This document shows, piece by piece, positions 1,017 to 64,000 of a DNA stretch of 64,000 bases (position 1 is its first letter; the number at the start of each line of letters is the position of its first letter). A program made the translations under genes and the position numbers. The notes under the pieces were generated by a model. It ran no database searches. It was not told the origin of the DNA and saw only the letters and a list, made by a program, of their open reading frames with translations. Location: assembly GCA_965662895.1 (NCBI GenBank), contig CBFIJH010000001.1, positions 64,001-128,000 on the forward strand, written 5' to 3'. The stretch comes from Candidatus Poseidoniaceae archaeon (GTDB lineage: Archaea > Thermoplasmatota > Poseidoniia > Poseidoniales > Poseidoniaceae).

Positions 1017-2084
1017 TCATCGCTTTGAAACTTGCAACGACCATGCAATTTCGCCGATTCGGTCAACCATATCGTCCAAACGAAGAACGAATCGATCGGT
1101 TCGATCGGCATTGAGAATGCACTCGCTTGCAGCGTTTGCGAGTTGAGCCGTTTCTTCAACAGAAAGTTCGAGTGTAATCGCAGTTGCGACTGCGACTGCT
1201 GCAGCATCAATCAAACCAATCATTTGTCGAATATCCTCAAGCATACATTGAACGTGCACCGTATCCTCTTCTCGTGAATGAATCGTAACACCATCTTGAC
1301 CCTCAAGAATCAAAAGGTGCTTCCAATCATTCGTTTCGAGAAGCATGGTCGCTGCTTCTGCACCCGTTGTGGCACCCAAGCGTCGCCGCATAAGTTCCAA
1401 TCCCTTGGATTGAAACAAAACCCAGTCAACACCTTGCGTCCGATGCAATCCTGTGAGTTTTGGATCAGCAATGATCGGGACATCATGTTGTTTTGCAGCC
1501 GTAATGAGGCGTTCGGCACCAGCATCGTCCAAAACACCGAGACCGTAATCGGACAATATCAAACAAGATGAACCAGGAATTGCCTCGATGGTACGGTCAA
1601 TGAGGGCTTCCAAAGCAGGGGATGGGATTGGCTCATCATCTTCAATATCCCAGCGCAACAAGAGTTGTTCGCCTTTGATCAAACCTTCTCTTGCACCCAA
1701 AAGCCGTGTTTTCACCGTTGTCGTTCGACCTTCGAGCACAGCGATACCAGATGTTTTCACGCCTTCTTCTTCAAGCATCTCCAATACTGCAAGCCCTGAA
1801 TCATCATTGCCAACTATTCCATGAAGTTGACTTTTCAATCCAAGAGAATCGAGACCCCGTGCGACGTGTGCAGCCGCTCCGACATCAACATCTCTTGAGA
1901 TCTCTTTAAGCACGGGAACTGGGGCACGAGAATTTAGATTATTTGCGAAACCATGAATGTAGCAATCCATCATGATGTCGCCTACGAGAAGAACTTTTGA
2001 TGGTTCCAATGTTTTCAATCCTCGTTCTAATTTTTTTAAATCGTCATAGACTTTAGCGTCGCTGTCACTCATTCCCATCTTCAT
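1017..2084 (-). CDS. PfkB/ribokinase-family protein resembling the RfaE/HldE kinase domain, with a degenerate catalytic motif
   Basis: VLLVGDIMMDCYIHG...APVPV, GAAAHVA, GIVGND, TTVKTR, LILSDYGLG, IADPK; C-terminal MIGLIDAA instead of VTGAGDT. Confidence 0.75.
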   Translation of the reverse strand: MKMGMSDSDAKVYDDLKKLERGLKTLEPSKVLLVGDIMMDCYIHGFANNLNSRAPVPVLKEISRDVDVGAAAHVARGLDSLGLKSQLHGIVGNDDSGLAVLEMLEEEGVKTSGIAVLEGRTTTVKTRLLGAREGLIKGEQLLLRWDIEDDEPIPSPALEALIDRTIEAIPGSSCLILSDYGLGVLDDAGAERLITAAKQHDVPIIADPKLTGLHRTQGVDWVLFQSKGLELMRRRLGATTGAEAATMLLETNDWKHLLILEGQDGVTIHSREEDTVHVQCMLEDIRQMIGLIDAAAVAVATAITLELSVEETAQLANAASECILNADRTDRFVLRLDDMVDRIGEIAWSLQVSKR

Positions 2085-3043
2085 CCCTCGATACCATCTT
2101 GTAATTTTGCTAGAAGCATTGCATGCTCTGTATCCGTCACTCCAGTTTTTTCTCGCAGCGTTTCAAGCATTGCTGATTCATCATTCGTAATGATACCATC
2201 AATGAGGGCTGTCTTCAAAACAGACTGGTACGCTTCGAGTTCTGGAGATATGTACGGTTCAGTTTGTGCTTTTCGAAGAATTCGTTTATGTGTCTCTTTA
2301 TCAATGTCAAAAGCGATTTGTACAGTTTTGAGCAAGGCTTCCTCTTCTTCATGTATCACGCCATCAACCAGTGCTTGGCGCAACATTTCGAGATAAATCT
2401 CCTCTGGAGGTGGAACGTCGATTTCGCGACGTGCTTCATTGGATAATCTTCGAACCCGATCAGGATGCATTCCCAAAAAGTCGACCACCTCATTGAGGAG
2501 AAGTTGTTCGTCCTTTGTAATTCGTCCATCTTGCCAAGCACGAGCAAACAATCGACGGACCAGCGCTTCTCCAGCTTGGGCGTCGAGCGAGGCTGAGCCT
2601 TCTGGATGAGAAACCGGTGACATGACGGGTTCGTGATGAACGACCATGTGTTCATCAATGTGGGCAAGAGTTTCCAACGTATCCTGTGCGGATGTAAAAA
2701 TGGAATCCAATAATACAGTTTGACCGTCTTTCTGCACGGGTGTTGATTTAATCTTGTTGAGTAAGGATTGGGCTCGTTCCCTGCCGATAGCGGTGAGTGA
2801 GTACACCCGTCTGCGTTGACGTGCACCAGGTACATGTCGGCTCGTTGTGCTGAGGAATTCTTTCGATTCGAGTCGTTTCAACGTACGTGGTACGTGCTTC
2901 CTTTGGACGTGGACAGCTGCGGATATTCCAGCTTGTGTGAGTTCCATTGGTGCCTCCCAGTTGCTCTCCGGTAGACGATGATTGAGAAGATGAAGAAGTG
3001 TCCTTTCTTCCGTGGTAAGTGTTCCTAAGAACCCGCTAACCAT
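2081..3043 (-). CDS. Winged-helix protein with three TerB-like repeats
   Basis: N-terminal wHTH (TQAGISAAV...RTLKRL...VYSLTAIG); repeats AWQDGRITKDEQLLL, ALVDGVIHEEEEALL, ALIDGIITNDESAML. Confidence 0.65.
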   Translation of the reverse strand: MVSGFLGTLTTEERTLLHLLNHRLPESNWEAPMELTQAGISAAVHVQRKHVPRTLKRLESKEFLSTTSRHVPGARQRRRVYSLTAIGRERAQSLLNKIKSTPVQKDGQTVLLDSIFTSAQDTLETLAHIDEHMVVHHEPVMSPVSHPEGSASLDAQAGEALVRRLFARAWQDGRITKDEQLLLNEVVDFLGMHPDRVRRLSNEARREIDVPPPEEIYLEMLRQALVDGVIHEEEEALLKTVQIAFDIDKETHKRILRKAQTEPYISPELEAYQSVLKTALIDGIITNDESAMLETLREKTGVTDTEHAMLLAKLQDGIEG

Positions 3044-61263: not shown

Positions 61264-62259
61264 TCACGTGTACATTTCAGAAATTTGCTTGTAGATTGTA
61301 AAGTTCTCTGATTCTACAAACGATTGGATGGAAGCATCAGGCATGTTTCCAAGTTGTTCATCGATAATCTGGAAGAAAATACCACGTTGTTCATCATCAA
61401 TAGCACGAGGATCTTCACCCACCTGTTTGAACAATTCGAAGCCATCGGACGCAAGGAACGTTTGAATGGCATCTTCTGGAAGTTCATCACCCAATAAATC
61501 GTTAACAATTTCAAAGAATTGAGAAAACAAGGCATCTGCTTCGTCGTCGCTTTCACTTGCTTCGGCTTCCATTGGCTCATCATCGGATTCGTCGCTTGAA
61601 GGGGGTGTTGATACGGGCTCGCTCATAAGTGAACGACGTTCTTGCATCAATTTTTCAAGTTGAGGAACAATCATTCGCAATGTTTCCTTGTCGCCATCGG
61701 CTTTCGCCTCTTTGTATTGCGGTTTTAATTCTCGAATTAAATTCTCAACTTCCGTGAGGCGGTCAGTCTCTTCGACTTCAGCATCGAGCAACTCAACAGA
61801 GGGAGCACTTCGAGCAGCATTGAGAGCGTCTTCACGTTCTTTTTTCCTCAAAACGATGATGTCCCGATCAAGTTCATGCCCAAATCGATCTGCGTATCTG
61901 TCGAGAAGTGAACCGGACTCTCCAGAACCGATACGGTCAATTGCCCCATAGATTTGCGGCAGTGGTTTTGCTGAACGTTTCGCCCACAGCTCACCGTATT
62001 CGTTTGTCTCTTCAGTGGATTCAGGTAAAGCCGATGTTTGAGAGACTGGTGATGGAACTGTAGGGAGCGGTGCTGGAGCGGGAGATGGGGGCAACGCAGG
62101 TTGTGCTGTAGGGTCGGGCGTGGATGCGGCTGGAACCGGTGGAAGCGCTCCATCGGGCAAAGGAGGGAGGGGAGCCTCTGGGAGTGGTGGCATGTTCGGA
62201 AGTGGAGGCAATGGAGATGGTGGTGCTTGTCCGGATTTATTCTTTTTCCGACGTCGCAT
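61264..62259 (-). CDS. Hypothetical protein with polyproline N-terminus and duplicated C-terminal helical unit
   Basis: MRRRKK then Pro-rich tract; repeat FFEIVNDLLG..LPEDAIQTFLAS / FFQIIDEQLG.MPDASIQSFVES. Confidence 0.7.
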   Translation of the reverse strand: MRRRKKNKSGQAPPSPLPPLPNMPPLPEAPLPPLPDGALPPVPAASTPDPTAQPALPPSPAPAPLPTVPSPVSQTSALPESTEETNEYGELWAKRSAKPLPQIYGAIDRIGSGESGSLLDRYADRFGHELDRDIIVLRKKEREDALNAARSAPSVELLDAEVEETDRLTEVENLIRELKPQYKEAKADGDKETLRMIVPQLEKLMQERRSLMSEPVSTPPSSDESDDEPMEAEASESDDEADALFSQFFEIVNDLLGDELPEDAIQTFLASDGFELFKQVGEDPRAIDDEQRGIFFQIIDEQLGNMPDASIQSFVESENFTIYKQISEMYT

Positions 62260-62343
62260 ATGCTCACCTCTATTCTGACTGGATGCTATTCTACCCTTGA
62301 ACCTTACCACAATTAGAACAAGAAATTGCGAATCCTTGGATGG

Positions 62344-63549
62344 TCAGGGTTGAACTATACTCGCCCATCCTTTGAGACTAAGAAACGTTGCAGATGACTC
62401 AGAGACGTGCAATCGATCACCTTTTGCAACATCGTGTTGATCTTCGCCAAACCTCAAAACGGCATCATCCACAGTTATTTCTACGTCAATCGATTTGTCT
62501 TTCCCAAATACAAACGCTTCACTCAATGCATCAAATGGATTAGGCCCCTCAGGGTCAAGTCTCTCTAGAGGAAATTCTGTAACACGCATGCCTGTCTTTC
62601 CGTGCAACGACGTTGGCCAACGTATTTGCCTCCGAACATCGATTGTAACAACTTCATCTGTTTCCCCTGCAGCACCAAGAACAATGGATGAATCCGATTT
62701 CACGAGATTCAAAAAAAGGGCTTGATGGGCTCCCAATCGAGAGATTTGACCGTTGATAACGGCATTTCGTCGCTCAGTGTGGAGAAACATATCTGCCAGT
62801 TTCCGTATACTTGCCGGACCTTTGCCGGGTTTCCCTTCGCGCTGGAGATGGTCTTTCAATCCAAGATGGAGTTGTTTCATCTCTTTCGATGCGTTTTCAT
62901 CATTCTCTGCGATTCGAACAAGTTTATCGATAAGCAACGGGACTTGTTGCCGAATTCGTTTTGTCCACCCATTTGCACTCGCATCATGGAAGCGTGTTAA
63001 TCCACCTTGAACATCAACGCCTTCTCCACGAATGAATGAGACAAGTTCCCGCCGAGCCTCAGAATCGAGATGAAACAATGATGGATCTCGATAGTGAAGG
63101 TGGAATCCACGATGACCGGAGAAGGTCACCTGCAAGAATGATTCATCAAATCCAAATTCAGGTTCCAAAAAATCGTTCCATAATGCGTGCGCCTGGTCGC
63201 GAATAACATCCAACATCGCAGGAAAATCACGGTCTGTAACGCCCGGTAGGTGATCACCATCCAAATCAAAGATTAAGTCAGCACCATGCCAAATCTTGTC
63301 GTTCATTTTGAGTTCGTATGGTTTCTGCCAATAAGCAGTTGAGTAGAAGCATGAATGCATGGCACGATCCGATAAGAAGTGACGAAGTTCTTGCTCGTTT
63401 CGAAACGATTTATGTCGAAGAGGAGGACTTCCTCCAAACGGAATAAACATCCATTCTCTCTTGGGCATTCGTGGTGGACGCCAAAATTTAGATGTTCGGT
63501 AATATTGACCGAACCGGTGTGCAAATCGTGCCCATCCGGTTGAAGCCAT
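62344..63549 (-). CDS. priS: DNA primase catalytic subunit PriS
   Basis: REWMF, YSTAYW, GADLIFDLDGD, FSGHRGFH, DEVVTIDVRRQIRWPTSLHGKTG. Confidence 0.95.
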   Translation of the reverse strand: MASTGWARFAHRFGQYYRTSKFWRPPRMPKREWMFIPFGGSPPLRHKSFRNEQELRHFLSDRAMHSCFYSTAYWQKPYELKMNDKIWHGADLIFDLDGDHLPGVTDRDFPAMLDVIRDQAHALWNDFLEPEFGFDESFLQVTFSGHRGFHLHYRDPSLFHLDSEARRELVSFIRGEGVDVQGGLTRFHDASANGWTKRIRQQVPLLIDKLVRIAENDENASKEMKQLHLGLKDHLQREGKPGKGPASIRKLADMFLHTERRNAVINGQISRLGAHQALFLNLVKSDSSIVLGAAGETDEVVTIDVRRQIRWPTSLHGKTGMRVTEFPLERLDPEGPNPFDALSEAFVFGKDKSIDVEITVDDAVLRFGEDQHDVAKGDRLHVSESSATFLSLKGWASIVQP

Positions 63550-63585: not shown

Positions 63586-63795
63586 CTAGTCTTTCTTCAT
63601 GTAGAATTTTTGTTCGGTTTCTCCGACAACTGTTACAGTGTCAGCACCTGTTTGTTCAACGTAGTGATCCCAACAATAGTAATGCTGATTGTGGACCATT
63701 GCCGCACCAAATGTAAGCCGTGTGCCACAATCATGACAACGCGGACCAATTTCACCATTAGGGGCTTGTGCGAGTTGTACGTGCTCATGTGGCAT
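63586..63795 (-). CDS. Small Zn-finger protein (resembles the second finger of a LIM domain)
   Basis: RCHDCGTRL...YYCWDHY; AGGTGAG Shine-Dalgarno before the ATG at 63795. Confidence 0.7.
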   Translation of the reverse strand: MPHEHVQLAQAPNGEIGPRCHDCGTRLTFGAAMVHNQHYYCWDHYVEQTGADTVTVVGETEQKFYMKKD

Positions 63796-63852
63796 TATCT
63801 CACCTGATTGCTGCAAGAAGTCTCGGTTCTAAAATGTCGTGATGGATTCTGT

Positions 63853-64000
63853 TCATGCCGACACGGTACTGTTGCTGACCCATTCAAGCAAATCCAGTGC
63901 TACCTCGCACGATTCACGGACTTCAACATTGTCATCTGTAAGGTATTTTTCCAAAACTGGCACGGCATCTCTGTTGCCTATGGCACCAAGTGCTTCTGCA
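63853..64000 (-). CDS. HEAT-repeat protein, deoxyhypusine-hydroxylase-like C-terminal fragment (5' truncated)
   Basis: Hand translation: AEALGAIGNRDAVPVLEKYLTDDNVEVRESCEVALDLLEWVSNSTVSA*. Not in the ORF track. Confidence 0.65.
   Translation of the reverse strand, partial: AEALGAIGNRDAVPVLEKYLTDDNVEVRESCEVALDLLEWVSNSTVSA

Follow-up and report, generated by a model that had tools for sequence, protein, structure and literature searches.

A conserved half-size homologue of eukaryotic deoxyhypusine hydroxylase in Poseidoniales and other Thermoplasmatota

Introduction

Eukaryotes complete the hypusine modification of translation factor 5A with an O2-dependent enzyme containing two irons, deoxyhypusine hydroxylase (DOHH; EC 1.14.99.29). 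The enzyme, represented by the human protein (PDB 4D4Z/4D50) and by yeast Lia1, is described in the consulted sections of two earlier papers as carrying four His-Glu motifs and eight HEAT repeats, the latter divided equally between the two arms of a symmetrical dyad (PMC8153317, PMC3306375). The iron ligands of the human enzyme are given as His56/His207, His89/His240 and Glu90/Glu241 (PMC3306375). HEAT_PBS and HEAT_2 repeats and an alpha-solenoid fold are also found in the PBS-lyase HEAT-like proteins, namely CpcE/CpcF, CpeY and NblB as well as E. coli YibA, the last of which is reported to be without the active-site residues (PMC3306375).

For archaea, the consulted sections of four papers (PMC3306375, 2012; PMC5178350, 2016; PMC6105217, 2018; PMC8153317, 2021) say that a DOHH orthologue has not been found there and regard the way in which archaea complete hypusination as unsolved. 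Hypusine itself has been reported from Sulfolobus acidocaldarius, and Haloferax volcanii is reported to have deoxyhypusine only (PMC5178350). Our own literature search, with subscription journals mostly outside it, found no published description of an archaeal DOHH homologue.

Here, we analyze a DOHH-like gene of a Poseidoniales archaeon and its relatives. The encoded protein has the HEAT fold in common with eukaryotic DOHH, is about 48-49% identical to it and carries its His-Glu motifs in the same two repeats, and the 'SVDPAPP' arm at its N-terminus is equivalent to the segment linking the two eukaryotic lobes. The protein amounts to a single lobe, with four HEAT repeats, two His-Glu motifs and 156-159 amino acids compared with eight repeats, four motifs and about 300 amino acids in eukaryotic DOHH. 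The archaeal protein corresponds to one arm of the DOHH dyad and would possess four His-Glu motifs only as a homodimer. Its di-iron site would likewise need a homodimer, whereas eukaryotic DOHH has both lobes in one chain. Unlike the eukaryotic gene, the archaeal gene is coupled to mqnD in Poseidoniales.

Results

A half-size DOHH-like gene at the edge of the window

The window, meaning the whole stretch of 64,000 nucleotides analyzed here, corresponds to positions 64001-128000 of contig C1 of genome G000. A preliminary description made from its letters alone had supposed an aerobic marine archaeon encoding a DOHH-like protein; the genome does belong to Poseidoniales (Marine Group II) and contains COX1 (haem-copper oxidase subunit I). 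Based on ORF listing, genome placement and alignment to DOHH, the 3' end of the DOHH-like gene occupies window positions 63853..64000 on the minus strand, with the stop codon at 63853-63855 (minus strand). This part comprises the codons for residues 112-159 plus the stop, and the reading frame is open at the window edge. Translation of the minus strand of 63853-63999 yields AEALGAIGNRDAVPVLEKYLTDDNVEVRESCEVALDLLEWVSNSTVSA, followed by the stop. The peptide AEALGAI-x18-VRESCEVALD, on which the preliminary description was built, is found in this interval with one correction, namely that the spacer consists of 19 residues (G119-E137) and not 18. AEALGAI represents the tail of the second His-Glu helix while VRESCEVALD is part of the last HEAT repeat.

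The remainder of the gene was taken from the genome. The full ORF spans C1:127853-128332 on the minus strand and encodes 159 amino acids from a GTG start. The 332 bases beyond the window (C1:128001-128332, equivalent to window 64001-64332, minus strand) contain codons 1-111, which specify the 'DPAPP' N-terminal arm and both His-Glu motifs. The motifs had been predicted to lie just outside the window, and two are indeed located there, H76-E77 and H109-E110, in the DOHH contexts ALLRHELAYVLGQ and MVRHEAAEALGAI, respectively. Two motifs per chain is the number foreseen for a half-size protein. The gene is present in one copy in the genome and is therefore not half of a split pair. The protein is one lobe of a DOHH-type enzyme, made up of an N-terminal arm, four HEAT repeats and two His-Glu motifs.

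The first GTG overlaps the stop of the upstream gene by 4 nt. A second GTG is located three codons further in and has an AGGAG sequence 8 nt upstream of it; a database protein 94% identical to the DOHH-like protein is 156 amino acids long. Because of the AGGAG sequence and the length of this close relative, the second GTG may be the real start, giving a protein of 156 amino acids.

Three further ORFs follow downstream on the same strand. The first, 40 nt from the end of the DOHH-like gene, is a Cys/His-rich ORF of 76 amino acids (window 63586-63816, minus strand; CHDCG...HYYCWDHY), probably encoding a small zinc-binding protein. Its match to the Pfam LIM family is sub-threshold (18.4 bits, cut-off 22.9). 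Throughout Poseidoniales, this ORF is conserved beside the primase gene, and in MGIIb, where the gene order differs, it remains with PriS. The primase gene itself (window 62344-63549, minus strand) encodes a DNA primase small subunit of 401 amino acids (PF01896, 61.7 bits). It is followed by a 348-amino-acid ORF (window 61264-62310, minus strand) whose product is very rich in proline over its N-terminal third (PPSPLPPLPNMPPLPEAPLPPLP...) and acidic in its C-terminal half, and for which no Pfam family was found at E 0.001 or better.

The protein is a specific homologue of eukaryotic DOHH

A phmmer search against all PDB sequences returned human DOHH (4d4z) as the best match, with an E-value of 1.7e-67 and 229 bits. 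Query residues 26-153 align to the N lobe (104 bits) and residues 8-151 to the linker and C lobe (123 bits). With 121 bits, a synthetic multi-repeat HEAT protein comes next and is thus the best chain outside DOHH. Similarity to the PBS-lyase HEAT-like proteins is weak, with 38.7 bits for CpcE (5n3u) and 23.6 bits for YibA. The grouping with CpcE and PBS-lyase proteins, named earlier as the alternative, is thus not what the scores show. Pfam assigns only generic repeats to the protein (HEAT_2, 88 bits; HEAT_PBS, 60 bits; also HEAT), and the nearest NCBIfam models are NblB (35 bits, cut-off 300), CpeY (31.7 bits, cut-off 600) and CpcE (26 bits, cut-off 330), so that the curated equivalog score of none of these PBS-lyase families is reached in the NCBIfam models.

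In gapless alignments, H76, H109 and E110 coincide with the human iron ligands His56/His207, His89/His240 and Glu90/Glu241, respectively. This mapping takes the chain numbering of 4d4z to be the native numbering plus 5, an offset inferred from the fit of the four His-Glu motifs. In an alignment of 31 archaeal half-size proteins, H76, H109 and E110 as well as E77, G83 and Q84 are invariant in all 31. Further invariant residues are D17-P18 of the 'DPAP' arm, the segment M106-V-R-H109-E110, E113 and G116. E77 and G83 occupy positions associated with the binding of deoxyhypusine in human DOHH.

An AlphaFold2 model built on 31 archaeal relatives (pLDDT 91.1) consists of eight helices, corresponding to four repeats, with the first 25 residues at low confidence. 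The best Foldseek matches of this model in the PDB are 4d4z_A and 4d4z_B (E 1.3e-10, TM 0.82-0.84), aligned over 144-147 columns at 48-49% identity; other HEAT proteins reach a TM of 0.68 or less.

The relationship can also be read in the opposite direction. Of 213 full-size proteins examined with an HMM of the archaeal halves, 208 contain two matching domains and 5 contain three. Matches to C lobes begin at the arm and score about 200 bits; those to N lobes begin after it and score about 160 bits. The linker motif ('SVDPAPP' segment) is present in 317 of 331 full-size proteins, with an N-terminal copy in only 5. The DOHH-like protein is a specific homologue of eukaryotic DOHH and not a generic PBS-lyase HEAT protein.

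Distribution in Thermoplasmatota

The DOHH-like gene was detected in 32 of 41 relatives, two of these being weak generic HEAT matches. Within the class, 120 of 201 genomes encode it at an E-value of 1e-15 or better, distributed by family as 76/89 (f1), 43/66 (f3), 0/43 (f4) and 0/2 (f5). At the level of the phylum (E 1e-12 or better), the count is 109 of 401 genomes and includes families outside Poseidoniales: f30 (18/19), f11 (7/9), f27 (3/3), f29 (2/6) and f19 (1/1). The archaeal halves are spread across at least ten Thermoplasmatota families. All 20 non-Poseidoniales loci examined encode half-size proteins; long open frames upstream of such halves proved to be high-GC artefacts, the exception being one in-frame fusion (G033) described below. 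In the phylum search, the gene was not found in 6 of 21 g12 genomes and in several MGIIb genera; three g12 genomes show a clean deletion of it, flanked by an intact mqnD on one side and the following gene on the other. Many aerobic Thermoplasmatota keep the DOHH-like gene under selection and as a single copy; in some Poseidoniales it is dispensable.

Searches of large protein collections returned 3163 relatives of similar length at E 1e-10 or better. Among longer relatives, the best 120 are all eukaryote-type DOHH proteins of about 300 amino acids or more at 45-55% identity. Similarly, in a profile search with the divergent archaeal group, the matches listed are eukaryote-type DOHH proteins of 250-294 amino acids. 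Several half-size members are called 'deoxyhypusine monooxygenase' by the JGI pipeline, while NCBI calls one of them 'hypothetical protein'.

A full-length profile of the eukaryotic enzyme, run against prokaryotic species genomes, gave a single full-length match in addition to 79 half-size loci, whose titles are of Thermoplasmatota type. The full-length match (L120, MNJR01000114.1), in a metagenome-assembled genome labelled 'Acidobacteria', was rejected. It is 62% identical to fungal DOHH and lies on a contig with only short ORFs, none of them running continuously over the match, which extends over 931 nt for 292 residues and contains an intron-like gap. Because of the missing continuous ORF and the gap, it is probably a eukaryotic contaminant.

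Several loci (L019, L022, L198, L128 and others) combine a Poseidoniales- or Thermoplasmatota-type gene and neighbourhood with bins labelled Salipiger, Rhodobiaceae, Proteobacteria or Halobacteriales. These contigs are likely mislabelled or mis-binned records.

Candidate function and genomic context

The genome also encodes the other parts of the pathway, a deoxyhypusine synthase (DHS; PF01916, 152 bits) and, as substrate protein, aIF5A (TIGR00037, 99.5 bits) with the loop SKPGKHGSAKA. All families with a DOHH-like gene also have COX1, and searches of the 139 genomes in the four families without COX1 (f6, f7, f17 and f20) did not find the gene. Since the gene occurs solely in families with COX1, its co-occurrence with COX1 fits an O2-dependent enzyme, keeping in mind that kinship inflates such patterns.

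We hypothesize that two identical chains pair head to head in the manner of the N and C lobes of the eukaryotic dyad. Each chain would contribute His76, His109 and Glu110 as ligands of one iron, so that the dimer would hold a di-iron, O2-activating centre. In human DOHH, a blue peroxo-diiron(III) species is known. The conserved N-terminal 'S-V-D-P-A-P-P' arm, equivalent to the eukaryotic inter-lobe linker, probably clasps the partner chain. Such a dimer would hydroxylate the deoxyhypusine side chain on aIF5A, yielding hypusine. Taking sequence, predicted fold and genome content together, we consider it fairly probable that the archaeal half is a homodimeric di-iron enzyme which hydroxylates deoxyhypusine on aIF5A, with both dimerization and activity being inferred.

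The genome neighbourhood has a different theme. In the window's genome, a VitK2_biosynth (MqnA/D) gene is located directly upstream of the DOHH-like gene, with a 4-nt overlap or a 5-nt gap depending on the start, and another VitK2_biosynth gene lies further upstream, together with one for an MqnC/E-like radical SAM protein. Among 203 distinct loci, 193 have enough upstream DNA to be evaluated, and in 150 of these the immediate upstream neighbour, encoded on the same strand, is an MqnA/D-family gene. One MGIIb genome (G033) even contains an in-frame MqnA/D-DOHH-half open frame of 463 amino acids with no stop between the two parts (L117 = G033:C2:118600-122100, frame 1490-2878, minus strand). 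It is the sole case among the genomes searched and reflects either natural gene fusion or the loss of a stop codon. Neither DHS nor aIF5A was found near the DOHH-like gene in any of the 203 loci.

In the genus of the window, the two groups of futalosine-pathway genes are split by a gene for a WD40/beta-propeller protein of 741 amino acids. It lies outside the window on the plus strand, opposite to the DOHH-like gene (L274 7317-9542 = G000:C1:129317-131542). Some other Poseidoniaceae are without this gap of about 2.2 kb between the futalosine-gene groups.

The Mqn gene upstream in most evaluable loci, the further mqn genes nearby, the G033 frame and the separation from DHS and aIF5A could all hint at a quinone-related role. 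The protein might then be a DOHH-type di-iron oxygenase with another substrate, either a step of the futalosine route to menaquinone (ring or side-chain hydroxylation), an aminoalkylated protein or a polyamine. We judge this to be unlikely, though well worth weighing, as several observations speak against it. All 150 Mqn-coupled loci belong to the Poseidoniales-like set, while the 43 loci without Mqn coupling include all 24 with less than 52% identity to the window's protein, and the neighbours of the gene outside Poseidoniales vary. Across genomes, the two genes show a double dissociation. Family f30 encodes the DOHH-like gene in 18/19 genomes and the MqnA/D family PF02621 in 0/19, f29 has the gene in 2/6 and Mqn in 0/6, and f27 has the gene in 3/3 and Mqn in 1/3; conversely, PF02621 is present and the DOHH-like gene was not found in f36 and six g12 genomes. 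Further, mqnD remains intact where the DOHH-like gene has been deleted, and the ligand-adjacent E77 and G83 are invariant. Whether a genome has the DOHH-like gene does not follow its content of futalosine genes, and tight coupling to mqnD is a feature of Poseidoniales alone. We therefore prefer the reading in which the protein hydroxylates deoxyhypusine on aIF5A.

Archaeal halves lie between the two eukaryotic lobes

Trees were calculated on 133 core columns for three sets of rows. The first was a FastTree analysis of 215 rows. The second, an IQ-TREE analysis, combined 30 full-size proteins split into their lobes (4 named and 26 drawn at random from 50%-identity representatives) with 27 archaeal rows; two of 10 representatives looked up, Gloeochaete and Trichuris, had informative cluster names. 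The third, also calculated with IQ-TREE, used 23 named eukaryotes (animals, fungi, plants, a glaucophyte and oomycetes) with the same 27 archaeal rows. In all three trees, the C lobes form one clade without any archaeal row (support 97; 100/99; 99/95) and so do the N lobes (98; 94/96; 81/83). The archaeal rows are placed between these clades, inside neither, and form two groups, A1 (Poseidoniales and f30) and A2 (f11, f27, f29 and others); the attachment of A2 to the C lobes is weakly supported (90; 84/74; 91/79). The maximum-likelihood trees split the archaeal rows in two, although archaeal monophyly is not rejected in AU tests (p 0.516, 0.475). Rooting with ammonia-oxidiser proteins as outgroup was tried in a quick tree and discarded, as the outgroup joined the long eukaryotic branch Gloeochaete_C, a long-branch artefact.

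Mean pairwise identities are 45.8% for A1-N, 47.3% for A1-C, 41.7% for A2-N, 44.6% for A2-C and 40.0% for N-C. The archaeal halves are nearer to each lobe (42-47%) than the N lobe is to the C lobe (40%), in agreement with their central position in the trees. The mean identity between A1 and A2 is 46.5%, meaning that the archaeal halves are as diverged from one another as they are from eukaryotes.

Because the archaeal halves lie outside both lobe clades and show these central identities, a recent capture from a crown eukaryote appears unlikely. Its most explicit form, in which the C-terminal half of a eukaryotic DOHH gene was recently acquired by horizontal transfer and truncated, leaving a protein of no settled function, could draw on the high identity to the eukaryotic lobes (45-55%), on the preference of the archaeal HMM for C lobes (about 200 vs about 160 bits) and on the DPAP arm, which is common only to the C lobes. 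We nevertheless find it very improbable, since in both IQ-TREE analyses the C lobes exclude all 27 archaeal rows, as do the N lobes, and since the divergence between A1 and A2, the spread over at least ten Thermoplasmatota families and the greater distance of the lobes from one another than from the halves all stand against it.

A possible scenario, which we put forward tentatively, is that the archaeal half is a surviving pre-duplication homodimeric di-iron DOHH. The eukaryotic two-lobe protein would then have arisen via duplication and fusion, with the arm kept as linker. In a bolder and weakly supported variant, the division of the tree into A2 plus C lobes and A1 plus N lobes would be real, and the two eukaryotic lobes would derive from two archaeal lineages of halves.

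More distant HEAT proteins in ammonia oxidisers

The ESM Atlas suggested that similar proteins occur in Nitrososphaerota and Bathyarchaeota. Ammonia-oxidiser genomes were located via an amoA primer, and 4 of 5 of them encode proteins of 162-170 amino acids with two His-Glu motifs. Among 301 genomes of Thermoproteota, 49 encode such two-His-Glu HEAT proteins, with E-values of 1e-11 to 1e-17 against the window's protein; a strong, Thermoplasmatota-type homologue was found in none of the 301, the best match having an E-value of 7e-17. At about 165-175 amino acids, the ammonia-oxidiser and Thermoproteota proteins resemble the archaeal half in size, and they carry 'VRHEAAFSLGQ' and 'VRHEAAxALG' in the same two repeats. 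They are 35-40% identical to it and have neither the DPAPP arm nor the ESCEVAL motif. The ammonia-oxidiser proteins match designed consensus HEAT proteins at 194 bits and DOHH at 76 bits. They are more distant relatives, and as they are nearer to designed consensus HEAT proteins than to DOHH, they can be assigned to the DOHH family with much less certainty. For the same reason, His-Glu motifs in HEAT repeats are not diagnostic by themselves.

That the window's protein is itself a non-catalytic HEAT scaffold, or a PBS-lyase-like protein merely resembling DOHH, is hardly credible: these two-His-Glu proteins of about 170 amino acids, the purely generic Pfam repeats and the identity of the nearest NCBIfam models (NblB, CpeY, CpcE) would suit such a protein, but the order of scores is reversed here (DOHH 229, synthetic HEAT 121, CpcE 38.7 and YibA 23.6 bits), the NCBIfam scores of 26-35 bits are far under the cut-offs of 300-600, and there is little or no variation at the three ligand positions or in the linker-like arm that the protein has in common with the eukaryotic C lobe.

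Discussion

The archaeal halves are a real and conserved half-size variant of a known enzyme family, encoded in a domain said to lack DOHH, and a function in hypusination is plausible for them. What is already known is a name, as relatives carry the label 'deoxyhypusine monooxygenase' in the automatic annotation of JGI.

The half-size family cannot be the general archaeal answer to hypusination. In a control search, the genome of Sulfolobus acidocaldarius contained no HEAT_2 match. Since this organism is reported to have hypusine but gave no HEAT_2 match, archaea must have another route as well, for which a DOHH homologue is not required, and the Sulfolobus case is left unsolved by the family described here.

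For a large group of archaea abundant in the ocean, the half-size DOHH family provides a concrete and expressible candidate for the last step of hypusination. As a natural candidate for a single-lobe di-iron HEAT enzyme, it may also be useful for understanding how the active site of the dyad is built, and the position of the archaeal halves between the N-lobe and C-lobe clades bears on the origin of eukaryotic DOHH. If either of the origins considered above is true, true hypusine would be made by an enzyme of the eukaryotic type in aerobic planktonic archaea, Marine Group II among them.
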